In this document: one piece after another, positions 1,914 through 60,785 of the stretch
Layout: each line of letters starts with the position of its first letter
Numbering within the stretch: the stretch's first letter is position 1
Assembly (NCBI GenBank): GCA_036375135.1
Contig: DASUSL010000091.1
Location: forward strand, 10,947 to 74,946
Length of the DNA: 64,000 nucleotides
Reading direction: 5' to 3'
Source: Thermoanaerobaculia bacterium
GTDB lineage: Bacteria > Acidobacteriota > Thermoanaerobaculia > Gp7-AA8
The notes under the pieces: generated by a model
The model's input: only the letters and a program-made list of their open reading frames with translations
Database searches by the model: none
What the model was told of the DNA's origin: nothing
Translations under genes and position numbers: made by a program

Positions 1914-1919
1914 GATTCT

Positions 1920-8738: not shown

Positions 8739-8855
8739 CGGGCGCGGATTCTATCTCCTCCGTCCCACGGAGGATAACGATGAACGATGAGCGATGAACC
8801 GCCTTCACCCCGGATGGGAGGCAGGGTTCATCGTTCATCGTTCATCGCTCATCGT
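8739..8855 (-). promoter_or_regulatory. structured purS leader: long imperfect hairpin built from GAACGAT/ATCGTTC heptamer repeats, plus a small hairpin that pairs the purS Shine-Dalgarno
   Basis: GATAACGATGAACGATGAGCGATGAACC ... GGTTCATCGTTCATCGTTCATCGCTCATCGTTC arms. On the purS sense strand, CCTCCGTGGGACGGAGG occludes GGAGG about 14 nt before the ATG. Confidence 0.5.
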
Positions 8856-9692
8856 TCAAAAGAGCGATAGCTGGCCCGGGAGGGGCTTGCGCTCGCGGCG
8901 GCGGGCGACGTCGAAGAGGCCTGTCGGCTCGAATTGTTTCGCAATGGAAAACTCGAGGCTCGCGCCCGTGCGGCGAAGCAGGCGCGTGCACATGTCGCGG
9001 ACGATCGACTCGTGGTTGTTCTTCTGCGAGAGGTGGATCATGCAGAGCGTCTTCAGGTCGGCGCCGAGGAGGCGCTGCACGGCGCTCACGGAATCGTCGT
9101 TCGACAGGTGGCCGAACCGCGACATGATCCGGCGCTTGAGCGACCACGGATAGCTGCCCATGCGGAGCATGTCCAGATCGTGGTTGGATTCGAAGAACAG
9201 GCCGTCGCATCCGCTGAGGTGGTCGAGCACTTCGCGGTTCACATAGCCGAGGTCGCTGGCGATGCCCACGCGGGTGCCGTCGCGGGACTCGATGACGAAG
9301 CAGGAGGGGTCCGCCGCGTCGTGGATCGTCTTGCGGGCGTGGACCTGCAGCTCGCCGATCCGGAACGTCGTGTCGTTCTGGAACACGACCATCTTCACGT
9401 CCGTCGTGTCGATGTTCGACGCGTCGAGCGTGCCTTTGGTCAGATAGATCGGCACCTCGTACTTGCGGGCGATCTTCTCCGCCCCGCGGATGTGATCGTA
9501 GTGCTCGTGGGTGACGACGATCGCCGAGAGCCGCTCGATGTCGCACCCCAGCGTGGCCAGGCGCTTCTTCGTGTCCCTGGGACCTATGCCGGCGTCCACG
9601 AGGATGGCTGTGCCGTCGCTCTCGAACCAGTAGGCATTCCCGGCCGAACCGGAGGAGAGAGGGGCCACGAGCATGGAGCGATGGTAGCTCAT
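8856..9692 (-). CDS. MBL-fold metallo-hydrolase
   Basis: THEHYDH (HxHxDH) motif and GSGSAGNAY N-terminus; about 270 aa. The start may be the internal ATG (MLVAPLSSGS). Confidence 0.8.
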   Translation of the reverse strand: MSYHRSMLVAPLSSGSAGNAYWFESDGTAILVDAGIGPRDTKKRLATLGCDIERLSAIVVTHEHYDHIRGAEKIARKYEVPIYLTKGTLDASNIDTTDVKMVVFQNDTTFRIGELQVHARKTIHDAADPSCFVIESRDGTRVGIASDLGYVNREVLDHLSGCDGLFFESNHDLDMLRMGSYPWSLKRRIMSRFGHLSNDDSVSAVQRLLGADLKTLCMIHLSQKNNHESIVRDMCTRLLRRTGASLEFSIAKQFEPTGLFDVARRRERKPLPGQLSLF

Positions 9693-13386: not shown

Positions 13387-13420
13387 AGCGCCTGTCCTCC
13401 ACTAAACTGCGCGCGCCGCG

Positions 13421-15531: not shown

Positions 15532-16281
15532 CCGCGGTGGACGCTCGCAGGGAAAACCGCCCTCGTCACCGGCGCGACGAAAGGCATCGGCCTGGCCATC
15601 GCGAACGAACTGGCGGCCTTCGGCGCTGACGTCATCGGCGTGGCACGTGGCAATGTGGCGACGGGCTTCAGCCCTTCGCGTGACGGGCTGAAGCCCGTCA
15701 CCACATTCGCAGCCGACATGAGCAGGCCGGAAGACCGCCGGCGCCTCATCGAAGGAATCGACAGACTCGACATCCTCGTCAACAACGCCGGCACGAACAT
15801 CCGCAGGAAGGCGATCGATTACGAGGACGGCGAATACGAGCGCATCCGCGAGCTCAATCAGGATGCGGTGCTTGATCTCTGCCGTCTCGCGCATCCGCTC
15901 CTGAAGCAATCGGGCGAGGCGAGCATCGTCAACATCGTCTCCGTGGCCGCCTTCCGCCACCTCGGCACCGGCATCCCGTACGCCATGACCAAGGCGGCCG
16001 TGGCGCACATGACCCGCGGCCTCGCGGCGGAGTGGGCGGCGGACGGGATCCGCGTCAATGCCGTGGCGCCGTGGTACATCCGCACGCCGCTGGCGCAGCC
16101 GGTGCTCGACGACCCGTTGCGTCTGGCGAAAATCCTCGAGACCACGCCATTGAAGCGCGTCGGCGAGCCGGAGGAAGTCGCGTCGCTCGTTGCATTTCTC
16201 TGCATGTCGGCCGCGTCTTACATCACCGGACAGTGCATTGCGGTCGATGGCGGATTCAGCGTTGCCGGTGTTTTCCAATAA
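15526..16281 (+). CDS. SDR family oxidoreductase
   Basis: [12 protein letters not shown] and YAMTKAA motifs. Carries a 15-aa in-frame insertion ([15 protein letters not shown]) encoded by the GGGCTTCAGCCC palindromic element at 15661-15698. Confidence 0.85.
15661..15698. repeat. palindromic element GGGCTTCAGCCC ... GGGCTGAAGCCC (F2 family), in-frame within the SDR gene
   Basis: ACGGGCTTCAGCCCttcgcgtgACGGGCTGAAGCCCGT. The same core occurs at 26765, 41085/41271 and 54272. Confidence 0.8.
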
Positions 16282-20690: not shown

Positions 20691-20764
20691 CAGTGCTGAG
20701 TGCTGGGTGCTGAGGGCTGAGACCACAGCGAAACTCAGCACCCGGCACTCAGCACTCAGCACTG
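20691..20764. repeat. hairpin of tandem heptamers (GTGCTGA)n / (TCAGCAC)n, occupying the carB divergent intergenic region
   Basis: GCAGTGCTGAGTGCTGGGTGCTGAGGGCTGAG ... CTCAGCACCCGGCACTCAGCACTCAGCACTG. It abuts ATG 20766 and lies 29 nt from the carB ATG. Confidence 0.85.
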
Positions 20765-20765: not shown

Positions 20766-21236
20766 ATGAAACGCTTCATCGAGTGGGACAGCATCGAGGT
20801 CCGTGTGGACGGCGAGAAGATCGCCGCCATGGCTCGCGAGATGGTCGCGGCCGACCCGATGATCGAGCGGCTGCACCTTCGGTTCGCGAACGGACTGCTC
20901 CGCGTGGAAGGGTCGGTGCGCAAGTTCATCAGCGTCCCCTTCCAGGTCGACATCACGCAGATGATCGCGTCGGGGACGACCGTGCGCGTGCCGCTGGCGC
21001 GCATCTCCGCCGGACCGATCCCCGTGCCGACGCTGCTGGTGGGGCTGGTGCGGCAGAAGTTCCCGAAGGAGCTCGTGCGCTACGAGGACCCGGCCACGCT
21101 GGTCCTCTCGCTGGATCGCTTTTTGCCACCTTTCGTCTCCGCTGATATCCAGAAGATCTGGATCATCGACGGCGGCCTGGCCGTGACTCTCGGCAAAGGC
21201 GGCGCCGATCTTCCCACCGGAGGTACGACTTCATGA
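20766..21236 (+). CDS. hypothetical protein (156 aa)
   Basis: ORF with typical codon usage; ATGA overlap with the downstream DUF1232 gene. The start is uncertain because the repeat hairpin abuts the ATG. Confidence 0.5.
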   Translation: MKRFIEWDSIEVRVDGEKIAAMAREMVAADPMIERLHLRFANGLLRVEGSVRKFISVPFQVDITQMIASGTTVRVPLARISAGPIPVPTLLVGLVRQKFPKELVRYEDPATLVLSLDRFLPPFVSADIQKIWIIDGGLAVTLGKGGADLPTGGTTS

Positions 21237-21733
21237 GTGAACAGGGCTTCGACGAAATGATGCGTGAGAGCACCGAGGTGTCGGGGCCGGTCTCGCGCGA
21301 CCGCGCGGACCGCTTCTACGACCGCATGCGCGAGAGTATTCGCAACTATCTGGCCGCGAAAGGCTCCGCCGCGGGCTCCGCGGGCGAGTATCTGCTGCTC
21401 GCTCCCGACATCTTCGTGCTGCTGTGGCGTCTGATCAACGACGACCGCGTCAACGCCAAGAACAAGGTCATGCTCGGCAGCGGCCTGGCGTACTACATCT
21501 TCCCGCTCGACATCATGCCCGAGGGCTTCCTGGGGCCGATCGGCTACATCGACGATCTCGTCTTTGCGGTGTATCTGCTGAACAAGCTGCTCACCGACAC
21601 CGACGTGGAGATCCTGCGCGAGCACTGGAGCGGCCGGGACGACATCCTCGACTCGATCCGCAACGTGCTGAACGCCGCGGACAACCTCGTCGGCAGCGAC
21701 ATCATCGGAAAGATCAAAAAGAACGTGAAGTAA
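21233..21733 (+). CDS. DUF1232 (YkvA-like) membrane protein
   Basis: DIMPEGFLGPIGYIDDLVFAVYLL matches the DUF1232 signature (IPDFIPViGYlDD). Confidence 0.65.
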   Translation: MSEQGFDEMMRESTEVSGPVSRDRADRFYDRMRESIRNYLAAKGSAAGSAGEYLLLAPDIFVLLWRLINDDRVNAKNKVMLGSGLAYYIFPLDIMPEGFLGPIGYIDDLVFAVYLLNKLLTDTDVEILREHWSGRDDILDSIRNVLNAADNLVGSDIIGKIKKNVK

Positions 21734-21742
21734 AAAAGATAG

Positions 21743-21775
21743 TGGAAGGACAGGCAATCCTGCCTGTCCTCCACT
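21743..21775. repeat. palindromic element GTGGAAGGACAGGCAATCCTGCCTGTCCTCCAC (F1 family), intergenic copy
   Basis: A 14-bp stem around an ATCC loop. Five more copies fall inside coding regions (23765, 33010, 40312, 54036, 54078). Confidence 0.85.
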
Positions 21776-21879: not shown

Positions 21880-22332
21880 ATGGAACTCAGCGTTTTTATG
21901 GGGCACAGCCCCGCGAAGATCGACGAGAAGGGGCGGCTCAAAGTGCCCGCGAACTTCCGGAAGATCATCGAGGAGCGCTACGGCAGCGAGTGCTTCATCA
22001 CCTCGAAAGACGGTGAGAGCGCGCTCGTTTACCCGCTCCCGGTCTGGCTCGAGTTCCAGGCCAAGCTGGCCAAGGTTCCGTCGACGTCGATGGCCAAGAT
22101 CAAGCTGCTCGAGCGGGTGAACTACTTCGGGCAGGTCGGGACGATGGACGCGCAGGGGCGCGTGCTGGTGCCGGCCGTCCTCCGGGGAGTGGCCGGCATC
22201 GCCGAAGACGTGGTCGTCCTCGGCAGCCAGGACCATCTCATCGTCTGGAACGAGCAGAAGATGAAGAAGCGGCTCGAGGACACGCCGCTCACGGCTGAAG
22301 ACTACAAAGAGCTCGAACTTCACGGCGTGTGA
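21880..22332 (+). CDS. mraZ: transcriptional regulator MraZ
   Basis: Two SpoVT/AbrB-like halves (DEKGRLKVP, DAQGRVLVP). The start may be the ATG at 21898. Confidence 0.9.
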   Translation: MELSVFMGHSPAKIDEKGRLKVPANFRKIIEERYGSECFITSKDGESALVYPLPVWLEFQAKLAKVPSTSMAKIKLLERVNYFGQVGTMDAQGRVLVPAVLRGVAGIAEDVVVLGSQDHLIVWNEQKMKKRLEDTPLTAEDYKELELHGV

Positions 22333-23416: not shown

Positions 23417-23842
23417 TTGATTCCGCGGTTTCCGGTCATGTACACGCAGAAAAAGTCCATCGACAACACGCACGTCGTTCGCGAGCGGGATCGCCAGCGA
23501 AACCGTGAGCTGGTCGCCGTCCTCTCCTTCGGCGTCCCGATCGGCCTCTTTCTGCTCCTGTTCACCTGGCAGAACCTCGAGGTCATCCGCCTCGGCCGCG
23601 AAGCCACGAAGCTGCAGAAGGACCTCAAGAACGTCACCGCCGAGCACAAGGCCCTTCAGGCCGAGCTCGATCGCCTGACCTCCTTCGACGCCGTCGAGAA
23701 CAAAGCGAAAGACCTCGGCTTCCAGACCACGGAAGCAAAAAACATCATCATCATCGAACCGCCAGTGGACGACAGGCGATCCCGCCTGTCGGGACAGGCA
23801 GGATTGCCTGTCCTCCACAGTCCTGCGAACGGAGCGCGGTGA
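23417..23842 (+). CDS. ftsL: cell division protein FtsL
   Basis: Small bitopic protein: TM helix VAVLSFGVPIGLFLLLF, then a coiled coil; located between rsmH and ftsI. The C-terminus carries an in-frame F1 palindromic insertion (VDDRRSRLSGQAGLPVLHS). The start may be the ATG at 23438. Confidence 0.7.
   Translation: MIPRFPVMYTQKKSIDNTHVVRERDRQRNRELVAVLSFGVPIGLFLLLFTWQNLEVIRLGREATKLQKDLKNVTAEHKALQAELDRLTSFDAVENKAKDLGFQTTEAKNIIIIEPPVDDRRSRLSGQAGLPVLHSPANGAR
23765..23818. repeat. tandem double copy of the F1 palindromic element inside the ftsL 3' end
   Basis: GTGGACGACAGGCGATCCCGCCTGTC GGGACAGGCAGGATTGCCTGTCCTCCAC. Confidence 0.85.
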
Positions 23843-29837: not shown

Positions 29838-29920
29838 GAGTCTCAGAGTCTCAAAGGCGCAAAGTCTCAAAGGAGGAGGCGACCTCTTTGCGACTTTGCG
29901 ACTCTGCGACTTTGAGACTT
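29838..29920. repeat. inverted repeat built from tandem roughly 10-mers (AGTCTCAAAG / CTTTGCGACT) with the RBS AGGAGGAGG in its loop, between mraY and murD
   Basis: GAGTCTCAGAGTCTCAAAGGCGCAAAGTCTCAAAGG aggaggcga CCTCTTTGCGACTTTGCGACTCTGCGACTTTGAGACT. Confidence 0.8.
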
Positions 29921-31251: not shown

Positions 31252-31266
31252 GCCGCGCTGGACGTC

Positions 31267-31351
31267 GAAGTGCTGAGTTCTGGGTGCTGCGTGCTGAGTC
31301 GCTTGCCGCCCACTGCCTCTGCTCAGCACTCAGCACTCAGCACTCAGCACT
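31267..31351. repeat. hairpin of tandem heptamers (GTGCTGA)n / (TCAGCAC)n between murD and ftsW
   Basis: GAAGTGCTGAGTTCTGGGTGCTGCGTGCTGAG ... CTCAGCACTCAGCACTCAGCACTCAGCACTTC, 22 nt before the ftsW ATG (GGAGG RBS between them). Confidence 0.85.
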
Positions 31352-31372
31352 TCGCCATGCTGGAGGCGCTCG

Positions 31373-32487: not shown

Positions 32488-33603
32488 ATGGGCGTGACGG
32501 GCGTGTTGATGGTTGCAGGCGGTGGGACGGGAGGCCACATCTATCCCGCCATCGCCATCGCACGGGAGTATCTCGCGCGCGATGCCGCGCGCAGCGTCGT
32601 CTTCGTCGGCACCGAGCGCGGTCTCGAAAAGACCATCGTGCCGAAGGCCGGCTTCCCCCTCGAGTTCATCGACGTCGGCGGCCTCAAAGGCAAAGGCGGC
32701 CTCGATCTCGTCAAGAACATTTTCCGGGTGCCGAAAGGCTTCATCCAGGCCTGGAAGCTGATCGGCAAGCACCGGCCGAGCGTGGTCCTCGGCGTCGGCG
32801 GCTACTCCTCGGGACCGGTGCTGCTCGCCGCCAGAATGCGCGGCGTTCCCACCATCGTCCACGAAGCGAACGCCTTCCCCGGTCTCGCCAACAGAAGCCT
32901 CGCCAAATTCGTCACCACCGTGGCCGTGGCCTTCGCGGAAGCCGGCCCGCGCATGAAGCGCAAAGACGCGGTGGTGACGGGCAACCCGATCCGAGCGGAG
33001 TTCTTCGAAGTGGGGGACAGGCGATCCCGCCTGTCCGGACAGGCAGGATCGCCTGTCCTCCACCGGCTGGTCCTCTTCGGCGGGTCGCAGGGCTCGCGCA
33101 TCCTCAACGACACCATGACCGGCGCGCTGCTGTTCCTGGCCCGTCACAAGGAGACGCTGGAGATCGTTCACCAGACCGGGCCGAACGAGCTGGAAAAAGT
33201 GCAGGCCGCGTATCGCACCTCCGCGTTCGCGGACACGGCGCGCGTCGTCCCGTATCTCGACCCCATCGTCGACGAGATCGCATCGGCCGACGTCGTGGTC
33301 TGCCGCGCCGGCGCCATGACCATCGGCGAGCTCGCGGCCATCGGGCGGGGCGCGATCCTCGTCCCCTTCGCCGCGGCCACGAACAACCACCAGGAATTGA
33401 ATGCGCGCGTCGTGGAGCGTGCCGGCGGGGCGGTGGTCATTACCGAAAAAGAGCTGTCGCCGGAGCGGCTGGCCGGCGCGATCAACGAAGTGCTGGCCGA
33501 TCCGCAGCGGGCCGCGCGCATGGGCGCGGCGGCGAAAACGCTGGCCATGCCTCAGGCAACGAAAACCATCGTCGATTTAATCGAGCGTATTCAGAGAATC
33601 TAA
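32488..33603 (+). CDS. murG: undecaprenyldiphospho-muramoylpentapeptide beta-N-acetylglucosaminyltransferase
   Basis: MVAGGGTGGHIYPAIAIA N-terminus and GT-B C-terminal domain with GAMTIGELAA. Contains an in-frame F1 double palindrome (DRRSRLSGQAGSPVLH) between the two domains. An alternative ATG lies at 32509. Confidence 0.9.
   Translation: MGVTGVLMVAGGGTGGHIYPAIAIAREYLARDAARSVVFVGTERGLEKTIVPKAGFPLEFIDVGGLKGKGGLDLVKNIFRVPKGFIQAWKLIGKHRPSVVLGVGGYSSGPVLLAARMRGVPTIVHEANAFPGLANRSLAKFVTTVAVAFAEAGPRMKRKDAVVTGNPIRAEFFEVGDRRSRLSGQAGSPVLHRLVLFGGSQGSRILNDTMTGALLFLARHKETLEIVHQTGPNELEKVQAAYRTSAFADTARVVPYLDPIVDEIASADVVVCRAGAMTIGELAAIGRGAILVPFAAATNNHQELNARVVERAGGAVVITEKELSPERLAGAINEVLADPQRAARMGAAAKTLAMPQATKTIVDLIERIQRI
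33010..33063. repeat. tandem double copy of the F1 palindromic element inside murG
   Basis: GTGGGGGACAGGCGATCCCGCCTGTCC GGACAGGCAGGATCGCCTGTCCTCCAC. Confidence 0.85.
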
Positions 33604-38855: not shown

Positions 38856-40034
38856 ATGACGATCCTGCGCCGCTTTCTCTCCAGCAACCTCGCCGTCTTC
38901 CTCTTCGTGGCCGCGGTGCACGGCGTCATGACGCGTGCGAATGCGATCATCGGCGTCGACACGCAGCTCTACATCACGTTGGCCGATCAGGTGCGCGCCG
39001 GCACGTGGAGCGGCGTCTTCGACTCGTCGCGCGTGTTGTGGACGAAGACCATCTACATCGTCCTCCTGGCCGCGGCGCGCGCGATCAGCAGCGTGCACTG
39101 GCCGCTGATCATGGTGGCGGTGAACGTCCTCTGCAGCGCGGCCACGGCGGTGCTGCTCGTGGCGCTGATGCGGCGCGCGACGTCGTCGCTGCCGGCCACG
39201 GCGCTGGCGCTCGCGTTCTACGTCACGGGCTTCGACATCTTCACGTGGGTGCGCTGGGTGCTCACCGACACGATCTACACGCTGGCCGCCCTCGGCGTGT
39301 TCGTGCTGGTGGCGATCCCGGTCCTCGATCCGTCCGCGCCGCGGCGCCATGGCCTCCTCGCCGCCGCGCTGCTGTTCGCGCTCTTCAGCCGGCCGCCGGG
39401 GATGGTGCTGGTCGCGCTGACGGCCGTCGCCGCGCTCTGGTTCTGGCCGCCGCCGCGTCTGCGCCGCGGCCTGCTCGCGACGATGCTGCTGGTGATCGTG
39501 GCCGCGGTCGGGTTCCGCACGTACATCGTCCACGATCCGGGACGCTGGCCGGTGCATCCGCTGCGGCAGAAGATCCACGAGTTCGCGGCGCGCGAGAAAT
39601 CGGGGGAAGTGATCTTCGGCCGGCAGGAGGCGTTCCGCCCGCCGGCGCGGACGGCCGGCGATCACCTGGTCATTCAGGCGGACCGCTTCGCGCGCTTCTT
39701 CCAGTTCACGGCGGCGGGCTACTCGCGCGCGCACAACCTGTACAACGTGCTCTATTTCGTCGCGCTCTATCTGCTCGCGCTGATCGGAGTGGTGCACGGT
39801 TACCGCTCCGCGGATCGCCGCAGGCGGGACCTGGTGCGGCTGACGCTCCTCTGGTTCCTCGCCTTCGCCGTCTATCACGCCATCACGGTGCTCGACTACG
39901 ACTGGCGTTTCCGCACGCCGGTGATGCCGCAGCTGATCGTGCTGGCGGCGCTCGGCGCGGAGGCGCTGCTTCAGCGGGTGACGTGGCGGCGGACGAGCTC
40001 CGCGGCGCGCGTCGCTTTCTCCTCGTCGAAGTAG
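38856..40034 (+). CDS. polytopic membrane protein, possibly a GT-C-fold (ArnT/PMT-like) glycosyltransferase
   Basis: About 10 predicted TM segments; an Arg/aromatic-rich loop follows TM1. The call rests on topology and on context with ArnC-like and ArnB/WecE-like genes; no motif could be confirmed. Confidence 0.4.
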   Translation: MTILRRFLSSNLAVFLFVAAVHGVMTRANAIIGVDTQLYITLADQVRAGTWSGVFDSSRVLWTKTIYIVLLAAARAISSVHWPLIMVAVNVLCSAATAVLLVALMRRATSSLPATALALAFYVTGFDIFTWVRWVLTDTIYTLAALGVFVLVAIPVLDPSAPRRHGLLAAALLFALFSRPPGMVLVALTAVAALWFWPPPRLRRGLLATMLLVIVAAVGFRTYIVHDPGRWPVHPLRQKIHEFAAREKSGEVIFGRQEAFRPPARTAGDHLVIQADRFARFFQFTAAGYSRAHNLYNVLYFVALYLLALIGVVHGYRSADRRRRDLVRLTLLWFLAFAVYHAITVLDYDWRFRTPVMPQLIVLAALGAEALLQRVTWRRTSSAARVAFSSSK

Positions 40035-40783
40035 CGGTCGTTGAAGAGATTCACGACCTCCGCGTGCAGCCGCTCCGCGTGCGGGAAGCCGCGCTCGAGC
40101 GGCGCGTAGTGGCGGCTGGCGAAGAGTCCCGCGTCGAAGATCGCGCGCACCAGCTCCTCGGCGCGTGCGACGCGGATGTTGAAGCGCCACGTGCAGAGCT
40201 CCGGCGGCATTTGGACTTCCAGCGGGATGATTTCCCGATAGATGGCGTTGAGCCGCGCCTTCACGTCGTCAGCCCGGTCTCGCTCTTTGAGAACGCGCTC
40301 GAGATACTCCGGTGGAGGAGAGGCAATCCTGCCTGTCCCGGACAGGCTGTATTGCCTGTCCTCCATCATCTGCGCGAAGCCGCCCTCGCCGAGGTCGACA
40401 TACTTTGCGTAGCCCGTACTGAAGAGCGTCACATCCGCATGTGGCGAAAGATCCGTCCCTTCGACGTCGGGCGGACAGAGGCACCGATCGTCGACGATCC
40501 TGAAGTCCTCGCGCGCGAGCTCCGCAAAGAACGCGTCCGCGTCGTAGACCGCCCCGTACGTCCGCACGAAGACCACGCCCGCGCAATGCGGCGCACGAGA
40601 AAGAATCTGCTCGCGCGACGGCTCCAGCGTGACGGGGTCGACGTCGACCAGCTCGTACGCGCGCCCCGCGGCGCGCAGCGTGGCCGGCACGATGTCGCAG
40701 ACGTTGGCGGGGAGGAGCCACACCCCGTCGTGTGAGGCCACGACGTCGTGCAGGATGGCCGCGGCGCGGTGAGCGTAGATCAT
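39971..40783 (-). CDS. short DegT/DnrJ/EryC1/StrS-family (PLP-dependent aminotransferase-like) protein
   Basis: LPANVCDIVPATLRAAGRAYELVDVDPVTLEP...FRIVDDRCL...FSTGYAKYVDLGEGG resembles the DegT core including the Lys-containing motif. Contains an in-frame F1 double palindrome (EDRQYSLSGTGRIASP). Confidence 0.45.
   Translation of the reverse strand: MIYAHRAAAILHDVVASHDGVWLLPANVCDIVPATLRAAGRAYELVDVDPVTLEPSREQILSRAPHCAGVVFVRTYGAVYDADAFFAELAREDFRIVDDRCLCPPDVEGTDLSPHADVTLFSTGYAKYVDLGEGGFAQMMEDRQYSLSGTGRIASPPPEYLERVLKERDRADDVKARLNAIYREIIPLEVQMPPELCTWRFNIRVARAEELVRAIFDAGLFASRHYAPLERGFPHAERLHAEVVNLFNDRYFDEEKATRAAELVRRHVTR
40312..40366. repeat. tandem double copy of the F1 palindromic element inside the DegT-like gene
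   Basis: GTGGAGGAGAGGCAATCCTGCCTGTCC CGGACAGGCTGTATTGCCTGTCCTCCAT. Confidence 0.85.
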
Positions 40784-42015
40784 CGCAGCCGCTCGAGCCG
40801 CTGCTGTTCGCGGGCGATGTTGTGCGCATCGACCGCGTCCGCGGTCATGTCGTCGCGCGTCGTGTAAGGCTCTTCGAAAGAGCGGAGGATGTCCGGCGCT
40901 TCCTCTTCGCGGATGCCGGCGTCGTAGCCAAGGAGGCGCATCTCGGGGAAGCAGGTCGCTTCGACGAAGCGGATCACGTCCCGCGGCAGCACGTCGCGAT
41001 ACGCTCCCACCGACTCACGCGAGACGCCCCGCCGCTCGCCGTGCGACGAGTTGCCACCCCACGACATGCTCTCCCCAATGTGGGGCGTGGCTTCAGCCCG
41101 CCCCTCGGGCGGGGTGGGGGGCACCGGGATAGGCGGGACCGGGGTGGGCGGCACCGGGATAGGCGGGACCGGGGTGGGCGGCACCGGGCCGGGCGGCACC
41201 GGGGTGGGCGGCACCGGGATGGCCGGCACCGGGCCGGACGGCACCGGGCCGGCCGGCACCGGGGTGGGCGGGCTGAAGCCGCGCCCCACATTGGCCAGCA
41301 GTCGTTGCAGTTCGGCCGCGGGGGCTTGCGTGAGGTCTTCGTAGCGCAGCCAGTGAAAACCCGCGCGTCCTTCGAGCTCGAGCGCGAAGGCGACGCTCTT
41401 GCGCCACTGCCGGATGTTGAAGAGCGTCGGCTTCAGCGCGCCGCCGAACTCCGGGCCGCGGCCGTGATTGAGCGACGCCAGCACGTCGCGCGGATCGCGC
41501 ACGATCAGCGCGCACGACACACCCGCGTCGAGAAACGCGGGGAGAAACTCCTCGCACGTCGTCTCCTTCGCCCCGGCCACCGGCGCGTCGCGGCGCGCCA
41601 GCCCGCGCCAGAGCGCGGTCATCATCGGCACGAACGGAGCGTCGGTGAGTGCGGCGTCCGTCTCCTCGCGCGTGAAGCGCGTGTACTGGCCGGAGTAGGT
41701 CTCCATCCGCGCGAAGAGCGCACGCGCGCGCTCGCGGTCCAGCGTGTAGTCGCGCAGGAACGCCGTGAAGTCGGCGGGCGTGTAGCGCGTTTCGCCGAAG
41801 AGGTGGCCGAGCGGGTAGCGCGCGTCTTCTTCGCCGAGCGTGCGCAGAAAGTCGCGCTTCGCCTCGACGAACAGCAGCGGCGCGGGCTGGGAAAGGATCG
41901 TCAGTGAAGGCTGTGCGTCGAGCAGCTTTTCGAGAAGCGTCGTTCCCGAGCGCTGCATGCCGGTGATGAACATCCGGCGCGAATGATAGGGCATGGTAGG
42001 ATGCGCGGCCCTCAT
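40780..42015 (-). CDS. sulfotransferase-domain protein carrying an in-frame Pro-rich pentapeptide repeat insertion
   Basis: [17 protein letters not shown] is the PAPS 5'-phosphosulfate-binding loop; an RDPRD region follows. A 73-aa insertion (GRGFSPP[TPVPx]n...[13 protein letters not shown]) is encoded by the composite repeat 41075-41294. The start may be an internal ATG (MPYHS, rc 41992-41994). Confidence 0.75.
41075..41294. mobile_element. composite MITE-like element: about 30-bp terminal inverted repeats containing the F2 GGCTTCAGCCC core, flanking ten 15-bp tandem repeats (GGCACCGGGGTGGGC)
   Basis: Left CCAATGTGGGGCGTGGCTTCAGCCCGCCCC; right GGGCGGGCTGAAGCCGCGCCCCACATTGG (one mismatch to the rc of the left arm). 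The internal 150 bp is 10 x 15 bp, read as PxVPx pentapeptides on the minus strand. Confidence 0.8.
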
Positions 42016-44406: not shown

Positions 44407-45344
44407 TGCAGGAGCAGAGTAGGAGTATAGCCACGCCGGACGTGTCGATCGTCGTCCCCGTGTACAACAGCCCCGACCTCGTCGCGCTCGTCGACCGCAT
44501 CGACGCCGCGTTCCGCGGCCGCGCCGAGTCGTACGAGGTGATCCTCGTCGACGACGCCTCGCCCGACGCGCGCATCTGGCCGCGACTGGAGACGCTGGCG
44601 CGCGAGCGCGCGCACGTGGCGGCCATTCAGTTGTCGCGCAACTTCGGACAGCAGGCGGCCACGCTGTGCGGACTGCGCGAGGCGCGCGGCGCCGTGGCCA
44701 TCACCATGGACGACGACCTGCAGCACGATCCGGCCGACATCCCGCTGCTGCTCGCCGCGCGCGGGCACGACATCGTCATCGGCGTGCTGGCCGGCAGGAA
44801 GCATCACTTCCTGCGCCGCGCCGCGAGCCGCGTCAAGAACGTCTTCGATCGCATCGTGATCGGCACGCCGAAGGGACTGCAGCTCAGCTCCTTCCGCCTG
44901 CTCAGCCGCACGGTCATCGACGGCGTGCTCTCCATGCGCACCGCGCGTCCGTTCCTCCCCGCGCTCCTGTTTCACGTGAGCAAGGACGCGACGGCGGTGC
45001 CGGTCACGCACAGCCGCCGCGCGGCGGGGCGCAGCGGCTACACGTTCTCGCGGCTCCTCGCGCTCTTCAGCAATCTGGTCATCAGTAACTCGTCGATCCT
45101 GCTGCGCGCGGGCGCGTACGCGGGCTTCACCTTCGCGTTCGTGAGCTTCGTGCTGGCGGCGATCGTCATCTACCGCAAGCTCGTGCACGGGCTGGCGGTG
45201 CAGGGATGGGCGTCGCTCTTCGCCGCGGTGATGCTGGTCGGAGGACTGATGCTCATCCAGCTCGGGATCATCGGCGAGTACCTGATCCGCATCATCGAGA
45301 CCGGCGAGGCGAAGCCCGCCTACATCGTGCGCCGCCGCTGCTGA
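44400..45344 (+). CDS. polyprenol-phosphate glycosyltransferase (GT2, ArnC/DPM1-like) with two C-terminal TM helices
   Basis: VSIVVPVYNSPDLVALVDRI, VILVDDASPD, QLSRNFGQQAATLCGL, then a DDDLQHDP catalytic region and C-terminal TM helices; ArnC/GtrB architecture. Confidence 0.8.
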   Translation: MAMQEQSRSIATPDVSIVVPVYNSPDLVALVDRIDAAFRGRAESYEVILVDDASPDARIWPRLETLARERAHVAAIQLSRNFGQQAATLCGLREARGAVAITMDDDLQHDPADIPLLLAARGHDIVIGVLAGRKHHFLRRAASRVKNVFDRIVIGTPKGLQLSSFRLLSRTVIDGVLSMRTARPFLPALLFHVSKDATAVPVTHSRRAAGRSGYTFSRLLALFSNLVISNSSILLRAGAYAGFTFAFVSFVLAAIVIYRKLVHGLAVQGWASLFAAVMLVGGLMLIQLGIIGEYLIRIIETGEAKPAYIVRRRC

Positions 45345-45480
45345 GGGGAACCGACGAAGAGGCCTCCGGCGGGCCGACGGGGCCGGCAGCGCCGGTTGCT
45401 CCGCCGAGAGCGTGCGTTCAGCGAAGCAACAAGCGCTGCCGGTCGCACCGGCCCGCCGGAGGCCTCCCGGTCGGTCTCCT

Positions 45481-46635
45481 TCAGAAGCTGCAGACCGCGT
45501 CGATGATGCGCGTCTGGTCCGCCTCGCTGAGCGTCGGATACAGGGGGAGGCGCACGACGCGATCGCTGACCGACTCCGCGACCGGGCAGTCGCCGGGGCG
45601 GCCGCCGAACCGCTCGCCCATCGCCGAGAGGTGCAGCGGCATGTAGTGGAAGATCGCCTGCACCGAGCGGCGGCGCAGATGGGCGATGAAGGCCTGCCGT
45701 TCGTCGAGCGACGGCAGGAGCAGGTGGAAGAGGTGCCAGGCCTGCGTGCAGTGCTCCGGCACGTGCGGCAATTGCACGCCGCGTTGCTGCGCCCAGTCGC
45801 GGATGCCGTCGAAGTAGCGCTCCCAGACGCGCTGGCGGGCGCGCTGGATCTTCTCGCGCGCCTCGAGCTGCGCGACGAGAAACGCGGCCAGCATGTCGGA
45901 GGCGACGTAGCTCGAGCCGAGGTCGAGCCACGTGTACTTGTCGACCTCACCGCGAAAGAAGCGGCTGCGGTCCGTCCCTTTCTCGCGGAGGATCTCGGCG
46001 CGCGCGATGAGCGACGGATCGTTGATCACCAGCGCGCCGCCCTCGCCGCAGGAGACGTTCTTCGTCTCGTGAAAGCTGAGCGTGCTCAGCGCGCCGAACG
46101 TGCCGAGGGGGCGGCCGCGGAACTGGCCGAAGAGACCGTGCGCGTTGTCTTCGATGACGTTGATGCGGTTGCGGCGCGCGATGTCGAGGATCGTGTCGAG
46201 CTCGCAGCCGACGCCGGCGTAATGCACGGGGACGATGGCGCGCGTGCGCGGCGTGATGAGCTGCGGCAGCAGGCGCTCGTCGAGGTTGAGCGTATCGGGA
46301 CGGATGTCGATGAACACCGGCCGCGCGCCGCGCAGTGCGAAGGCGCTGGCCGTGGAGACGAAGGTGAACGACGGGATGATCACCTCGTCGCCCGGCTGGA
46401 GATCGAGCAGCAGCGCGGACATCTCCAGCGCGTGCGTGCACGACGTCGTGAGGAGCACGCGCGCGCCGCCCAGGAGCTCGGACAGCATGCTCTCGCTGCG
46501 GCGCGTGTAGACGCCGTCGCCGGAGATGTGCCCCCGCTCGATGGCGTCGCGGACGTACGCCAGTTCCTGCCCGGCCAGCGACGGCCGGTTGAACGGAATG
46601 GCCGGCTCGATCACTGCGCGTTCGGCTTCTTTCAT
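45481..46635 (-). CDS. DegT/DnrJ/EryC1/StrS-family sugar aminotransferase (WecE/ArnB-like)
   Basis: IPFNRPSLAGQELAYVRDAIERGHISGDG...SCTHALEMSALLL...VIIPSFTFVSTA...FSFHETKNVSCGEGG...DKYTWLDLGSSY, colinear with dTDP-4-amino-4,6-dideoxygalactose transaminase. Start ATG rc 46633-46635. Confidence 0.85.
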   Translation of the reverse strand: MKEAERAVIEPAIPFNRPSLAGQELAYVRDAIERGHISGDGVYTRRSESMLSELLGGARVLLTTSCTHALEMSALLLDLQPGDEVIIPSFTFVSTASAFALRGARPVFIDIRPDTLNLDERLLPQLITPRTRAIVPVHYAGVGCELDTILDIARRNRINVIEDNAHGLFGQFRGRPLGTFGALSTLSFHETKNVSCGEGGALVINDPSLIARAEILREKGTDRSRFFRGEVDKYTWLDLGSSYVASDMLAAFLVAQLEAREKIQRARQRVWERYFDGIRDWAQQRGVQLPHVPEHCTQAWHLFHLLLPSLDERQAFIAHLRRRSVQAIFHYMPLHLSAMGERFGGRPGDCPVAESVSDRVVRLPLYPTLSEADQTRIIDAVCSF

Positions 46636-52253: not shown

Positions 52254-52628
52254 CAAAGTTTAATGGAACGGCATCGCATCGACACGTGGCTCAGGCAGGT
52301 CTGCCTCTTCAAACACCGGGCAGAGGCGACCGAAGCCTGCAAAGGCGGCAAGGTCAAGATCAACGGACTCCGCGTCAAGCCGGCCGCGCCCGTCAAGGAA
52401 GGCGACGTGGTCGAGTTCTACGACGGCGGCGACCGCTACCGCCGCGTCATCGTGCAGTTCGTCCCCGACTCCAACGTGTCGAAAGTGAACGCGCGCACCA
52501 TGTACGACGACGAGACGCCGGTGCAGGACAAGATCGACGTCATCACCTCGATCTACCGCGAGCGCGGAACCGGCCGGCCGACGAAGAAGGATCGCCGCGA
52601 CATCGAGAAAATGGAGGAGATGGAGTGA
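52254..52628 (+). CDS. RNA-binding S4 domain protein (Hsp15-like)
   Basis: RIDTWLRQVCLFKHRAEATEACKGGKVKINGLRVKPAAPVKEGDVVEF matches the S4 fold of ribosome-associated Hsp15/YbcJ. Confidence 0.7.
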   Translation, partial: QSLMERHRIDTWLRQVCLFKHRAEATEACKGGKVKINGLRVKPAAPVKEGDVVEFYDGGDRYRRVIVQFVPDSNVSKVNARTMYDDETPVQDKIDVITSIYRERGTGRPTKKDRRDIEKMEEME

Positions 52629-53335
52629 ATCTGGTCGAGCGGCACGATCGCGGGGTGATCCGCCACGCGAGTACGGTTTACGGTTCCTCGGTCGACGGCG
52701 TTCCCCTGACGGTCTTTCTGCCCGATTCCGGCAGCGCCGAGCTGGTCCTCCTCGCCGCCATCCACGGCGACGAGCCGGAGACGACGGTCGCGCTCTCCGA
52801 AGCACTGCGCTGCCTGCCGGAAGGGGAGCTGCGCGCGGCGGTGATCCTGTGCGGCAATCCCGACGGGCTGCTGCGCGGCACGCGCGGCAACGCGCGCGGG
52901 ATCGACCTGAACCGCAACTTTCCGACGTCGAACTGGACTCCGGGCGAGGTGTTCTACAAGAGCCGCGCGAACGACGCGCGCGACATCGCGCTCAGCCCCG
53001 GCCCCGAGCCTGCCTCGGAACCGGAAACGCGCGCGTTGCTGGCGCTGCTCGAGAAGCTCGACCCTCGCGCGGTGGTCAGCATGCATTCCGCGCTGGCCTG
53101 CGTCGACGACTCCGGCAAGTCGCACCTCGGGAAGCAGCTCGCCGACCGTTGCACGCTCCCGCTCCTGACCGAGATCGGCTATCCGACGCCCGGCTCGATG
53201 GGGACGTGGGCCAGCGAGCGCGGGCTGAACCTGGTCACGCTGGAGCTCGAGGACGCGTCGCTGTACGCGCTGAAGGATCATCACGTGCCGATCCTGCTCG
53301 ATCTGATGACCGGCAGGTTCGAGCTCGAGGCGTAG
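52625..53335 (+). CDS. M14-family zinc carboxypeptidase/amidase (MpaA-like murein peptide amidase)
   Basis: GTGA overlap start; AAIHGDEPET (HxxE zinc ligands), NPDG and IDLNRNF motifs; about 237 aa like MpaA. Confidence 0.7.
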   Translation: MNLVERHDRGVIRHASTVYGSSVDGVPLTVFLPDSGSAELVLLAAIHGDEPETTVALSEALRCLPEGELRAAVILCGNPDGLLRGTRGNARGIDLNRNFPTSNWTPGEVFYKSRANDARDIALSPGPEPASEPETRALLALLEKLDPRAVVSMHSALACVDDSGKSHLGKQLADRCTLPLLTEIGYPTPGSMGTWASERGLNLVTLELEDASLYALKDHHVPILLDLMTGRFELEA

Positions 53336-53337: not shown

Positions 53338-54246
53338 ATGCACATCCTCGTCACCGACTCCGGCGTCGGCGGCCTTTCCGTGGTCGCGTACGCCGAGCGC
53401 TTCGTGCGCACGCACGGCTTCACCGAGCCGGTGCGGCTCACGTTCGCGAACGCCGCTCCGGCGAACGACTACGGCTACAACTCCATGCGCACGCGCGAGG
53501 AGAAGCTGGAGACCTTCGACCGCTTCCTGCGCAACGTGACGGAGCGCTTCGCGCCCGACTCGATTTACGTCGCCTGCAACACGCTCTCGGTGCTGCTGCC
53601 CGACACGCCGTACTTTGCTGATGCGCCGGTGCCGGTGAAAGGGATCGTGGAGACGGGCGTCGAGCTCCTGCTGCGCGAGCTGGCGCCGCGGAGTGTGGCG
53701 ATGATCTTCGGCACCCAGACCACCATCGACGCGGGAACGTATCCGCGGCTCCTCATCGAGCGCGGCATCGAGCCGTCGCGCATCGTCAGCCAGGCCTGTC
53801 CCGGGCTGGCGGACACGATCTCCGAAGACCGCGAGGGGACGCGAACGCGCGAGGAGATCCGCGGCTGGGTGAGCGCCGCGATCGCGAAGATGGAGCACGC
53901 CGGCGCGCCCGTCGTCGCCGCGCTGGCCTGCACGCACTACGGCTATCGCAAGGACGACTTCGCCGCGGCGTTCGAGGAAGCGGGGATCGACGCGCGCGTG
54001 GTGAACCCGAACGAGCGCGCCGCCGACGACCTGATGGAGGACAGGCAATCCTGCCTGTCCGGTTTTTCGCGAGATCGGGACAGGCAGGGTTGCCTGTCCT
54101 CCACCACTGACGTCGAGGTGCGCTTCGTCACGCGCTACGCGATCCCGGATGCGACGGTCGAGGCGCTCACGTTCTTCCTGAACGAGATCTCACCCCGGAC
54201 CGTCGCCGCGATGCGGCACTTCGAGCATCTGCCGGATCTGTTCTGA
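53338..54246 (+). CDS. murI: glutamate racemase-like (Asp/Glu/hydantoin racemase family)
   Basis: VTDSGVGGLSV and LACTHYGY catalytic-Cys motifs. Carries an in-frame 24-aa insertion from two inverted F1 palindromes (EDRQSCLSGFSRDRDRQGCLSSTT). Confidence 0.7.
   Translation: MHILVTDSGVGGLSVVAYAERFVRTHGFTEPVRLTFANAAPANDYGYNSMRTREEKLETFDRFLRNVTERFAPDSIYVACNTLSVLLPDTPYFADAPVPVKGIVETGVELLLRELAPRSVAMIFGTQTTIDAGTYPRLLIERGIEPSRIVSQACPGLADTISEDREGTRTREEIRGWVSAAIAKMEHAGAPVVAALACTHYGYRKDDFAAAFEEAGIDARVVNPNERAADDLMEDRQSCLSGFSRDRDRQGCLSSTTDVEVRFVTRYAIPDATVEALTFFLNEISPRTVAAMRHFEHLPDLF
54036..54104. repeat. two inverted F1 palindromic elements separated by 17 nt inside murI
   Basis: GGAGGACAGGCAATCCTGCCTGTCC ggtttttcgcgagatcg GGACAGGCAGGGTTGCCTGTCCTCCAC. 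Confidence 0.85.
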
Positions 54247-54333: not shown

Positions 54334-55431
54334 TTACGCGTTCACGAACCGCCGCATGTCCACGTTCAGGATCAGCCCGATGGCGATGAAGAACATCATC
54401 GTCGACGAGCCGCCGTACGAGATCAGCGGCAGCGGAATGCCCGTCGTCGGCAGGATCCCGATCTGCATCGACACGTTGATGAGCACGTGGAAGATGATGA
54501 ACGAGATCAGGCAGATGATCAGGAACGTGCCTCCCCGGTCACGTGCCTGCTTCGCGAAGTTCAGGGCTTGAATCACGAGGAACAGATAGAGCCCCAGCAC
54601 GATGATCACGCCGATGAAGCCCCACTCCTCGCCGAGGACCGCGAAGATGAAGTCGGTGTGCCGCGCGGGGAGGAACTCCAGCTTCGCCTGCGTACCGTGG
54701 CGGAAGCCCTTGCCGTTGATGCCTCCGGAGCCGATGGCGATCTTCGCCTGCGTGACCTGGTAGCCCGAGCCGAGGGGATCGCGCTCCGGGTTGAGGAAGA
54801 TCGCCACGCGCTCCTTCTGGTACGGCTTGAGGAACGCGAACCATCCCACGGGGAGCGCGATCGCCACCAGCAGGATCATGGCGATCCAGACGCGGGCGCG
54901 GATCCCTCCGAAGAACATCGCCACGGCGTAGAGCGGGAAGAACGACGCCGCGGTGCCGAAGTCGGGCTGGATGATGATCATCCCCACCGGCAGCGTGATG
55001 ATGCCCATGACCATCAGGAACGAGCGCAGGTCGAGATAGGCGCGGTCGTTCGAGTCGAAAAAGCGCGCCACCATCAGCGCGGTGAAGAGCTTCATGAACT
55101 CCGACGGCTGGAACTGGAAGCCGCCGATGTGGATCCACGAGCGCACGTTCGCCGTGAGCCGTCCGAACACCATCAGATACAACAGCAGCAGAATGCCGAT
55201 GCCGTAGAGGATCGGCGCGATGTCGAACAGGACGTGATAGTCGACGACCATGAACGCGATCATCAGCGCCACGCCGATGGCCACCCACAGCAGCTGCTTC
55301 TTCGCGGTCGAGAGCGAGGGATCGCTGTAGTAGGTCGCGCTGTAGACGAGCAGCACGCCGATGAGCGCCAGCACCACGGCGGTGCCGAGGAAGTTCCAGT
55401 CGACGGACGGGCCACGGTCGCGAAAAATCAT
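54334..55431 (-). CDS. rodA: SEDS-family peptidoglycan glycosyltransferase RodA
   Basis: Ten-TM SEDS protein (QPSEFMK, LPARHTDFIFA, PLPLISYGGSS), adjacent to mrdA. Confidence 0.9.
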   Translation of the reverse strand: MIFRDRGPSVDWNFLGTAVVLALIGVLLVYSATYYSDPSLSTAKKQLLWVAIGVALMIAFMVVDYHVLFDIAPILYGIGILLLLYLMVFGRLTANVRSWIHIGGFQFQPSEFMKLFTALMVARFFDSNDRAYLDLRSFLMVMGIITLPVGMIIIQPDFGTAASFFPLYAVAMFFGGIRARVWIAMILLVAIALPVGWFAFLKPYQKERVAIFLNPERDPLGSGYQVTQAKIAIGSGGINGKGFRHGTQAKLEFLPARHTDFIFAVLGEEWGFIGVIIVLGLYLFLVIQALNFAKQARDRGGTFLIICLISFIIFHVLINVSMQIGILPTTGIPLPLISYGGSSTMMFFIAIGLILNVDMRRFVNA

Positions 55432-57382: not shown

Positions 57383-57444
57383 GGGTGCTGGGTGCTGAGT
57401 GCTGAGTGCTGAGAACTCAGCACCCAGCACTCAGCACTCAGCAC
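57383..57444. repeat. hairpin of tandem heptamers (GTGCTGA)n / (TCAGCAC)n between mreD and mrdA
   Basis: GGGTGCTGGGTGCTGAGTGCTGAGTGCTGAG aa CTCAGCACCCAGCACTCAGCACTCAGCAC, 12 nt upstream of the mrdA ATG. Confidence 0.85.
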
Positions 57445-58902: not shown

Positions 58903-60117
58903 GTGATGACCGGTCAGTCGCTCCTCGCCGCCGCCGTTTTGCCGCTCTGTTTCGTGCACGGACAATGGTTCGACGGCACGAAGTTCACCGGGAAGAGTTT
59001 CTGCGCGGAAGGTGGGGTGCTCGTCCAGCGCCAGCCGCGGGCAGGCGACCGGACCATCGATCTCGGCGGCAAATTCGTGGTGCCGCCGTTCGGCGAAGCG
59101 CACAACCATAACGTCGACAGCGGCGAGCGGCTGCAGAGCCGCATCTCCGCCTACCTCGGCGCGGGAGTCTACTACGTCAAGAATCCCAACAATCTGCCGC
59201 GCACGGTGCCGCGCGACCGCGTCAATCAGCCTCGCAGCATCGACGCGGTCTTCGCGCAGGCCAGCCTGACCGGACCGGGCGGACATCCGCTCGACGTGAT
59301 GAAACGCCTCATCGACCGCGGCGTCGCGAAGCCGGAGGACGCCGACGGAGGCTTCTACTTCGTCGTCCGCGACGCGCGCGAGCTCGCCGGGCGCTGGCCC
59401 GCCGTCCTGGCGAACCGCCCCGACTTCATCAAGACCTATCTCCTCTACTCCGAGGATTACGCACGGCGGAAGGACGATCCGGCGAAAGCGGGATGGAACG
59501 GACTCGATCCGGCGCTGCTGCCGGAGATCGTCGCCCGCGCCCGCGCCGCCGGCCTTTCCGTGACGACGCACGTGGAAACGGCCGCGGACTTTCGCGCCGC
59601 CGTCGCCGCGGGCGTCGACGAGATCAATCACCTGCCCGGCTTTCGTCCGGAGAAAGAGGACTTCTCGATCTTCACTTCCGGCCGCGCGCGGCTGACCGAT
59701 GCCGACGCGCGCGCCGCGGCGCGGAAGGGGATCGTGGTCGTGACCACGGTCGGGGAGTCGATCGTCATGGCTCGCGAGCAGAAGCAGGCGGCGTGGCTGG
59801 AGACGATCGAGCACAACCTCCGCACGCTGCACCGCAACGGCGTCCGTCTCGCCATCGGCAGCGACGACTACGGCCGCGGCGTCGTCCCCGAGGCGATGGC
59901 GCTGGCCTCCCTCGGCATCTTCTCGAACGCCGAGCTGCTGCGCATGTGGACCGAGCACACGGCCGCGGCCATCTTCCCGAAACGGAAGATCGGCCGGCTG
60001 CGCCCCGGCTACGAGGCCAGCTTCCTCGTGCTCGGCGCCAACCCGCTCCGTTCCTTCGCCGCCGTCCGCACGATCGAGCTGCGTGTGAAGGAGGGGGAGA
60101 TCCTCAGCGCGAAGTAG
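58903..60117 (+). CDS. amidohydrolase-family metal-dependent hydrolase, secreted
   Basis: Signal peptide, FGEAHNHNV (HxH metal motif), later HVE and GSDD-type motifs; 404 aa. Confidence 0.7.
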   Translation: MMTGQSLLAAAVLPLCFVHGQWFDGTKFTGKSFCAEGGVLVQRQPRAGDRTIDLGGKFVVPPFGEAHNHNVDSGERLQSRISAYLGAGVYYVKNPNNLPRTVPRDRVNQPRSIDAVFAQASLTGPGGHPLDVMKRLIDRGVAKPEDADGGFYFVVRDARELAGRWPAVLANRPDFIKTYLLYSEDYARRKDDPAKAGWNGLDPALLPEIVARARAAGLSVTTHVETAADFRAAVAAGVDEINHLPGFRPEKEDFSIFTSGRARLTDADARAAARKGIVVVTTVGESIVMAREQKQAAWLETIEHNLRTLHRNGVRLAIGSDDYGRGVVPEAMALASLGIFSNAELLRMWTEHTAAAIFPKRKIGRLRPGYEASFLVLGANPLRSFAAVRTIELRVKEGEILSAK

Positions 60118-60170
60118 AGGCAAGAGGAAAGAGGAAAGAGGGAAGAGGAAAGCGCCGCGCGCTGAGGATC
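60099..60170. repeat. hairpin GATCCTCAGCGCG / CGCGCTGAGGATC enclosing a purine-only (GAGGAAA)n tract, over the amidohydrolase stop
   Basis: Purine run GAGGCAAGAGGAAAGAGGAAAGAGGGAAGAGGAAAGCG at 60117-60154. Its complement-type pyrimidine run recurs at 60745-60785. Confidence 0.75.
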
Positions 60171-60464: not shown

Positions 60465-60701
60465 GTGACTTATGAGGAACTCGACACCGTTGTCTTGAAC
60501 CGCGACCTTCCCGCGTACGGATTGAGGCGGGGGGATCTTGGCGCGGTCGTGCAGGTGTATCGCACGGAGGGGCTCGAAGTAGAGTTCGTAACGGCTTCAG
60601 GACGTACGCAAGCTGTGGTCACGCTGGATGTGACCGATGTGCGCCCGGTCAGTGATCAGGATTTATTGTCGGTGCGCACAGTCATTCGCGGAGCTGCCTG
60701 A
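60465..60701 (+). CDS. DUF4926 domain protein
   Basis: VVLNRDLPAYGLRRGDLGAVVQVYRTEGLEVEFVTASGRTQAVVTLDVTDVRPV matches the DUF4926 pattern; 78 aa. Confidence 0.6.
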   Translation: MTYEELDTVVLNRDLPAYGLRRGDLGAVVQVYRTEGLEVEFVTASGRTQAVVTLDVTDVRPVSDQDLLSVRTVIRGAA

Positions 60702-60710
60702 GCCCCCGCC

Positions 60711-60785
60711 GAAGAGAAAAGAGAAAAGCGCACCCGACCTCCGGGCCTCTTTCCTCTTTTCTCCTTCCTCTTTCCTCCGCTTTCG
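60711..60785. repeat. purine-run / pyrimidine-run hairpin abutting the mreB stop; inverted counterpart of the 60117-60154 purine tract
   Basis: GAAGAGAAAAGAGAAAAGCG ... CCTCTTTCCTCTTTTCTCCTTCCTCTTTCCTCCGCTTTCG. With the 60117 tract it brackets about 600 bp containing the DUF6883 remnant and the DUF4926 gene. Confidence 0.7.

Follow-up and report, generated by a model that had tools for sequence, protein, structure and literature searches.

The repetitive extragenic palindromes (REPs) of the GTAG-tagged superfamily are short, G+C-rich stem-loops with a tetranucleotide at one end. They have been described in Escherichia coli, Pseudomonas, Stenotrophomonas and the soil bacterium Opitutus terrae, whose families GTAG-17 to GTAG-20 include one with a GTGG head (GTAG-20; Di Nocera et al., PMC3733652). 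Several families share a genome, copies are dispersed in the hundreds, and inverted dimers, with partners 0-2 bp or more apart, are known. REPs are mostly intergenic, yet many singlets and dimers lie inside genes of O. terrae and other species, where the dimers encode 20-30 amino acids (PMC3733652). Here we analyze a palindromic unit, termed family A, that recurs in 64,000 nucleotides of a Thermoanaerobaculia bacterium (phylum Acidobacteriota; assembly GCA_036375135.1, contig DASUSL010000091.1, positions 10,947 to 74,946). This whole stretch, hereafter the window, holds copies within genes of the division and cell wall (dcw) cluster. Family A resembles the GTAG-tagged REPs in its stem-loop with a one-sided tag, its inverted dimers, its dispersal alongside other families in one genome, and its mostly intergenic location combined with intragenic singlets and dimers that encode short peptides. 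Even a host type recurs: a REP lies in an ASPIC/UnbV protein of O. terrae (PMC3733652), as a family A copy does in the ASPIC/FG-GAP protein of locus L009.

Family A differs from known GTAG-tagged REPs in stem and loop sequence, neither GGACAGGC nor the encoded peptides being present in the supplementary tables of PMC3733652. It also differs in its phylum, in hosts that, unlike those listed there, include dcw genes, and in a transposase link that is only inferred. The family and its lineage are new, and intragenic repeats of such a kind are already known. The initial annotation of the window had taken the high-G+C host as a novelty, a view that does not hold because high-G+C O. terrae has about 70 listed rows of intragenic REPs (PMC3733652). 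In the literature searched, neither family A nor any heptamer repeat of Acidobacteriota was described.

Rickettsia palindromic elements (RPE-1 to RPE-8), to which family A had at first been likened, also sit in-frame in coding genes, essential ones included, and are likewise tolerated as extra surface peptides. RPE-1 is about 100-150 bp long, A+T-rich and confined to Rickettsiales. Family A is set apart from RPEs by size (units of 27 or 54 nt), tag (GTGG, not CGTC) and host (free-living soil Acidobacteriota). The likeness stands at the level of behavior, and the closest class is the GTAG-tagged REP/REPIN superfamily. Some RPEs (RPE-4 and RPE-6) have themselves been classed as CGTC-tagged REPs (PMC3733652).

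Anatomy and class of the repeat

The family A unit reads GTGGA followed by GGACAGGC-N6-GCCTGTCC: a 5-nt head, an 8-bp G+C-rich stem and an asymmetric 6-nt loop, 27 nt in total and about 70% G+C, with the conserved tetranucleotide (GTGG of the head) at one end only. The initial annotation had reported a recurrent palindrome at several intergenic and intragenic sites, each of which does hold a copy, and GGACAGGC-N{2,12}-GCCTGTCC has 8 exact matches in the window against 0.00 expected from 100 shuffles. The stem 8-mer by itself matches 21 times (3.06 expected) and the tail-plus-head 13-mer GCCTGTCCTCCAC 11 times (2.1 expected). Family A density is 9 units per 64 kb. Not all of those sites belong to one family as first proposed, since the copy near 54290 represents a related but distinct GTAG-headed family (family B; Table 1). 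The 5-nt spacer of the proposed consensus finds no match even with two mismatches, because the loop has 6 nt. The peptides read from the copies (DRRSRLSGQAG[SL]PVLH, EDRQSCLSG and EDRQYSLSGTG) were correct.

Related loci and the window together provided 196 units in 124 elements. The loop is AATCCT in 61% of units, the side of the head and the orientation of the loop are strictly coupled in the 184 oriented units, and the 5' boundary is sharp, with conservation ending abruptly at GTGGA. Apart from a weak preference for A immediately before the head, the flanks have no target motif in common. Doublets account for 65 of the 124 elements and are arranged tail-to-tail, with the heads outside, in 62 of the 65. 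Their commonest spacers are 0 nt, which gives a 54-nt doublet, and 9 nt.

A single 22-nt hairpin folds as DNA with -8.7 to -11.6 kcal/mol (z = -4.4 to -5.0), and the longer singlet between the DUF1232 gene and mraZ with -15.9 kcal/mol (z = -6.2); doublets fold into one long hairpin. The family B doublet reaches -28.5 kcal/mol (z = -10.7) as DNA, and its arms differ by a compensatory G-C to A-T change in the stem. Three further GTAG/GTGG-headed hairpin families reside in the window beside family A, making four altogether. A miniature inverted-repeat transposable element was considered and ruled out: the whole element is a hairpin, not a segment bounded by terminal inverted repeats. Around the copies there were neither duplicated flanks (target-site duplications) nor any flank conserved beyond the head.

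The GTGG-headed hairpin, the inverted doublets, the dispersal, the co-resident families and the mostly intergenic location place the element in the REP class. We consider it likely that family A is a high-copy GTGG(A)-headed variant of the GTAG-tagged REP superfamily, restricted to the soil Thermoanaerobaculia/gp7 lineage, that spreads and is filtered by selection as follows. The element would move non-autonomously as single-stranded hairpin DNA, with catalysis presumably provided in trans by a single-copy HUH/Y1 REP-associated tyrosine transposase (RAYT), a step that we infer from class membership. Selection would then remove most coding insertions and leave survivors in flexible loops, interdomain linkers and C-terminal tails. 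There, a surviving repeat would be translated as neutral or slightly deleterious filler of 9-24 residues, often in place of part of the native loop. The dcw genes would have been struck for their permissive loops and not for any function of the element in division.

Copies inside genes

A scan with GTGGAGGACAGGC-N6-GCCTGTCC over one genome per species in GTDB returned at least 100 matching stretches, nearly all of them in metagenome-assembled genomes (MAGs) of soil Thermoanaerobaculia or "Acidobacteria gp7". The closest relatives, in the roughly 55 kb covered, had no copies. Coding status was called from the codon-position G+C signature (G+C at the first position exceeding that at the second, GC1 > GC2) for 117 evaluable copies in about 790 kb of related loci. 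Noncoding DNA held 81 of the 117 (~69%), whereas 25 (~21%) lay inside open reading frames (ORFs), 8 (~7%) in a C-terminal tail within 30 codons of the stop, and 3 were ambiguous. With about 88% of the sequence coding, genes hold fewer copies than their share, which is the depletion expected under purifying selection. The element thus avoids genes strongly, though far from completely. Inside the window 4 of 6 family A elements are within ORFs.

The lengths of 27 and 54 nt, together with the lack of any stop codon in the six frames of the element, mean that insertion into coding DNA is not automatically lethal. That every copy leaves its host ORF open, as first reported, is therefore true and not special: divisibility of the insert by three suffices. 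The four intragenic copies of the window do share one relative frame, and this had been taken as a property of the family. In related genomes the three frames are used 11 : 3 : 11, so the shared frame of the window's copies is a local coincidence or a mild bias.

Orthologue comparison separates insertion from native sequence. The repeat-encoded peptide is present in 12 of 121 MurG sequences (the window plus 11 of 120 orthologues that are 76-95% identical). Those lacking the element have a shorter, unrelated linker, for example NRQPPTANRQ or RNQQPATSN. Of 121 sequences of the racemase-like ORF, that of the window is the one that carries the element, which is absent from all 120 listed orthologues. 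The window gene exceeds them in length by 13-17 residues, with about 7 native codons replaced. In the uncharacterised ORF, the doublet of the window is matched by a singlet at the same site in L104, an orthologue with 88% identity, and the two differ there by 30 nt. In CarB the positions are reversed: relative L003 has a doublet in a loop in which the window holds an unrelated, longer sequence. Because orthologues without the element have shorter, unrelated loops, the intragenic copies are in-frame insertions or replacements. The initial annotation had named extra residues shared by such relatives as what would refute insertion, and relatives without the element do not have these residues. The difference in element presence between close relatives at given sites shows turnover.

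The hosts are real proteins where checked against Pfam, and the insert mostly lies between or beside recognised domains. They include a HypB-type GTPase, an HhH-GPD glycosylase, an SMC hinge protein, 2-oxoglutarate dehydrogenase, CarB, the ASPIC/FG-GAP protein, an Lhr helicase (insert between WH3 and WH4) and RlmI (insert between the PUA and methyltransferase domains). In the window, Pfam confirms the MurG and FtsL/DivIC identities proposed at first and not the other two names. The "murI" ORF belongs to the Asp/Glu-racemase superfamily and stays below curated thresholds (TIGR00067, 45.8 bits for a cut-off of 146.65; Pfam, 30.9 for 31), and the "DegT-like" ORF has a sub-threshold match only (E = 0.013). 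Two of the four hosts are thus not the essential genes first named, by any curated threshold, and the claim that all of them are essential cell-wall or division genes is not supported. Its companion, that insertions fall at loops, agrees with the loop and linker positions found. The MurG doublet lies between two Pfam domains (residues 92-230 and 278-444 of the long ORF) and aligns with the interdomain linker of a solved MurG (3s2u). In an AlphaFold model with a mean predicted local distance difference test score (pLDDT) of 88.7, residues 181-190 average 57, the least confident stretch, and the insert is accordingly modeled as a linker-like segment.

Several observations weigh against spread by a RAYT followed by simple filtering. 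A search of the window and of about 870 kb of related loci for a RAYT or other Y1 transposase, by tblastn with E. coli RayT and by an HUH...Y motif scan, gave none. Conservation of head and stems is partly circular, as both were built into the search pattern; that of the loop and of the boundary is independent of it. Nor are the insertions clean additions: native residues have given way to the repeat in MurG, CarB and the racemase-like ORF. The loop variant GATCCC is a minority (7 of 184 units) that all 12 REP-bearing MurG alleles carry, yet these alleles are scattered over the MurG tree. The scatter and the common loop suggest one origin followed by allele exchange (recombination) or repeated loss, or else targeted reinsertion. 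Finally, unrelated repeats occupy the same loops in relatives, and purely random insertion with filtering would account for this only if permissive sites are very rare. We separately considered selection at the peptide level for GATCCC (Cys to Arg) and rejected it; GATCCC is also found in copies read in frame 1 and has the look of a subfamily.

Alternating repeats at fixed sites and competing explanations

Four sites in the dcw cluster show the alternation among relatives. The FtsL tail has a REP doublet in the window and L107, (CCAACCG)n in L101 and L102, and (GAAGGCA)n in L108, where it is the left arm of an inverted heptamer hairpin. The MurE loop is empty in the window, carries a heptamer array of +21 nt in L101, L102 and L107 (a clean 3 x 7 nt relative to the window) and a REP doublet in L108. 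At the MurG linker, the window, L107, L108 and L029 share the REP doublet, L101 has (AACCAGC)n and L102 (AACCGCC)n. The MurC loop is empty in the window and L101, holds an inverted octamer-type array in L102 and L107, and a REP doublet in L108. The L102 and L107 arrays, hairpins of the (TTCGAGTC) type, lie in-frame in the loop after C[AI]DD and add about 19-28 residues. Heptamer arrays such as (AACCGCC)n, (AACCAGC)n and (GAAGGCA)n are in-frame inside FtsL, MurE, MurF and MurG of close relatives, and perfect arrays of at least 20 nt number 64 in about 830 kb of the lineage.

Cyanobacterial short tandemly repeated repetitive sequences (STRRs) are families of tandem heptanucleotide repeats dispersed around the genome. 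The heptamer arrays described here, as distinct from the REPs, resemble STRRs in their tandem 7-nt units and their dispersal. Unlike STRRs, many are inverted pairs that form hairpins, and several lie in-frame in essential genes as blocks of about three units (21 nt). Intergenic hairpins built from inverted 7-8-nt tandem arrays are also present in the window (Table 1). Their arms include (AGTGCTG)~4 facing (ACTCAGC)~4, AACGATG facing GTTCATC, and AGTCTCAA facing CTTTGCGA. Several stand between dcw genes (on the carB side, mraY-murD and murD-ftsW) and resemble terminator or stabiliser hairpins, but are repeat-built. A long-range inverted pair of heptamer arrays, about 600 nt apart, flanks the region of ORF 60637-61227 upstream of mreB.

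One could read the alternation as targeted cassette exchange, in which REP doublets, heptamer arrays and inverted 7-8-mer arrays are mechanistically linked and swapped at set codon positions of FtsL, MurE, MurG and MurC. One type of repeat may serve another as its target for insertion or be what the excision of another leaves behind, or hairpins may attract hairpins. We regard this as doubtful. It has in its favor the four sites themselves, which alternate between empty, heptamer, inverted array and REP doublet among relatives that are 77-93% identical, a heptamer-like unit directly 5' of the FtsL REP (GAACCGCCA in the window, CCAACCGGCCA in L107), and the minority REP subfamily common to MurG, FtsL and MurC. 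However, a REP stands beside a heptamer array in 2 cases against 1.3 expected (373 of 1000 randomisations reach 2), relatives show ordinary loop sequence at the racemase-like and CarB sites, and the weak A preference before the head is the only flanking motif in common. A further idea, that a few codon positions (FtsL tail, MurE loop, MurG linker, MurC loop and MurF tail) are landing pads repeatedly rewritten by unrelated repeat families through a directed process, appears to us equally unlikely. Such a process might, for example, home in on repeats or hairpins already in place, or arrays might grow from the footprints of excision. With no enrichment of REP-heptamer adjacency within genomes, filtering for a few indel-tolerant loops is the economical explanation.

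A selected RNA or DNA function in the operon is less probable still. On the polycistronic dcw transcript the hairpins could direct processing by RNase III/E, shield against 3' exonucleases, or make translation pause or couple at ftsL-ftsI; in the DNA they could be sites for gyrase or nucleoid proteins. The doublet in murG mRNA is very stable (-50.1 kcal/mol, z = -7.2, RNA fold), 21 nt separate the end of the FtsL copy from the start of ftsI, and the MurG copy is retained in genomes just 77% identical at the DNA level. REPs of E. coli are reported DNA gyrase targets, and roles of REPs in transcription termination and mRNA stabilisation have been hypothesised (PMC3733652). Nevertheless, close relatives manage without the element wherever a site was compared, the genes that host copies are numerous and unrelated, every frame is used, decay is visible in some MurG copies (P0071 and P0082), and no Rfam family matched anywhere in the window.

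It is very improbable that the repeat is kept as a functional peptide module, that is, for an encoded linker or interaction motif such as DRRSRLSGQAGLPVLH. The single frame of the four intragenic window copies would fit such a role, as would the depletion of frame 1, which encodes WRTGNPACPDRQDCLSS (3 of 25, binomial p = 0.03). Against it, most copies are noncoding, two quite dissimilar peptides (VEDRQSCLS... and GGQAILPV...) occur equally often, it is the DNA palindrome that is conserved and not the peptide, the MurG segment is predicted to be a low-confidence linker, and orthologues use unrelated ones. Repeat-induced chimeric joins that mimic in-frame insertions can practically be dismissed, although every sequence compared, the window included, is from a MAG or metagenome assembly. 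The same alleles of MurG and FtsL recur in assemblies that separate projects made independently (NCBI TPA, JGI, ENA and Logan), orthologues align collinearly on both sides of the inserts, and the Pfam domains run on in frame, leaving the flanking domains intact.

Neighborhood of the copies and significance

The window has 64-69% G+C and the dcw order mraZ-rsmH-ftsL-ftsI-murE-murF-mraY-murD-ftsW-murG-murC-ftsQ-ftsA-ftsZ, followed further on by mpaA, the racemase-like gene and rodA-mrdA-mreDCB. An MpaA-type murein tripeptide amidase (NCBIfam, 235.9 bits) directly precedes the divergent glutamate-racemase-like gene. Their position beside rodA-mrdA-mreDCB suggests a peptidoglycan-recycling pair and not a canonical murI. 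Table 1 also lists three further repeats.

Table 1. Positions of repeats and selected genes in the window and, where a locus is named, in relatives.
Feature	Position	Strand	Remarks
Family A singlet, heads GTGGA(A)/TCCAC on both sides	21742-21774		Hairpin GGACAGGC-AATCCT-GCCTGTCC; intergenic, between DUF1232 gene (21233-21733) and mraZ (21880-22332)
Family A tail-to-tail doublet, 54 nt	23765-23818	+	Loops GATCCC/AGGATT; C-terminal tail of FtsL/DivIC (ORF 23417-23842); encodes VDDRRSRLSGQAGLPVLH
Family A tail-to-tail doublet, 54 nt	33010-33063	+	GTGGGGGACAGGCGATCCCGCCTGTCC joined to GGACAGGCAGGATCGCCTGTCCTCCAC; MurG interdomain linker (gene ~32488-33603); encodes VGDRRSRLSGQAGSPVLH, residues 175-192
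Family A doublet, 1-nt spacer	40312-40366	-	Encodes MEDRQYSLSGTGRIASPPP; uncharacterised ORF 39971-40783 (minus strand), which adjoins sulfotransferase gene
Family A doublet, 17-nt spacer	54034-54106	+	Encodes MEDRQSCLSGFSRDRDRQGCLSST; loop of racemase-like ORF ~53338-54246
Family A remnant (tail stem + head, GCCTGTCCTCCAC)	13390-13402	+	Just past stop of cdaA-like ORF at 13386
Family B doublet, GTAG head, 4-nt loop	54266-54319		GTAGGGCAGGCTTCAGCCTGCCC / GGACAGGCTGAAGCCTGTCCTAC; intergenic, between racemase-like gene and rodA (54334-55431, minus strand)
GTAG/GTGG-headed family GTAGCGGCCGGCTGGAAGCCGGC, head-to-head pair	1798-1914		49-nt arms, 92% complementary
GTAG/GTGG-headed family GTGGTGACGGGCTTCAGCCCGTCA, doublet	15652-15707		
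In-frame heptamer arrays, L102	455-485, 2644-2673, 9774-9810		
In-frame heptamer arrays, L101	1137-1166, 10529-10552		
In-frame heptamer arrays, L107	3391-3416, 6214-6245		
In-frame heptamer array, L108	1040-1078		
MurC gene with inverted array, L102	10404-11828		
MurC gene with inverted array, L107	11147-12544		
Intergenic hairpins of inverted 7-8-nt tandem arrays	20691-20764, 31266-31354, 57385-57444, 8776-8858, 29839-29920		
Heptamer array (AGAGGAA)5.3	60116-60152		
Complementary heptamer array (CCTCTTT)4.6	60712-60777		
MpaA-type murein tripeptide amidase gene	52286-53335		
Glutamate-racemase-like gene	53338-54246		
21-nt tandem repeat (CTTCGCGAGGATTCGTTTTCG)	4666-4880		10.2 copies, 86% matches; apparent intergenic region
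15-nt repeat	41110-41271		10.8 copies; proline-rich PTPVPP-type linker in sulfotransferase-family protein (ORF 40780-42015, minus strand)
Inverted repeat	45334-45491		74-nt arms, 78% complementary, 10 nt apart

These results extend REP/REPIN-type elements, and their little-studied intragenic habit, to an abundant uncultured soil class of Acidobacteriota. They also provide natural examples in which 18-24 extra residues are tolerated in MurG, FtsL, MurE and MurC. In practical terms, these repeats inflate ORFs, break assemblies and mislead MAG annotation, while sites that are polymorphic can be used directly to mark strains. What deserves following is how repeat types alternate at fixed sites. 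If this exceeds what selective filtering produces, it would point to an unknown targeting or replacement mechanism, and the landing-pad reading, if true, would be a way, not described before, in which repeats drive the evolution of linkers in essential proteins.

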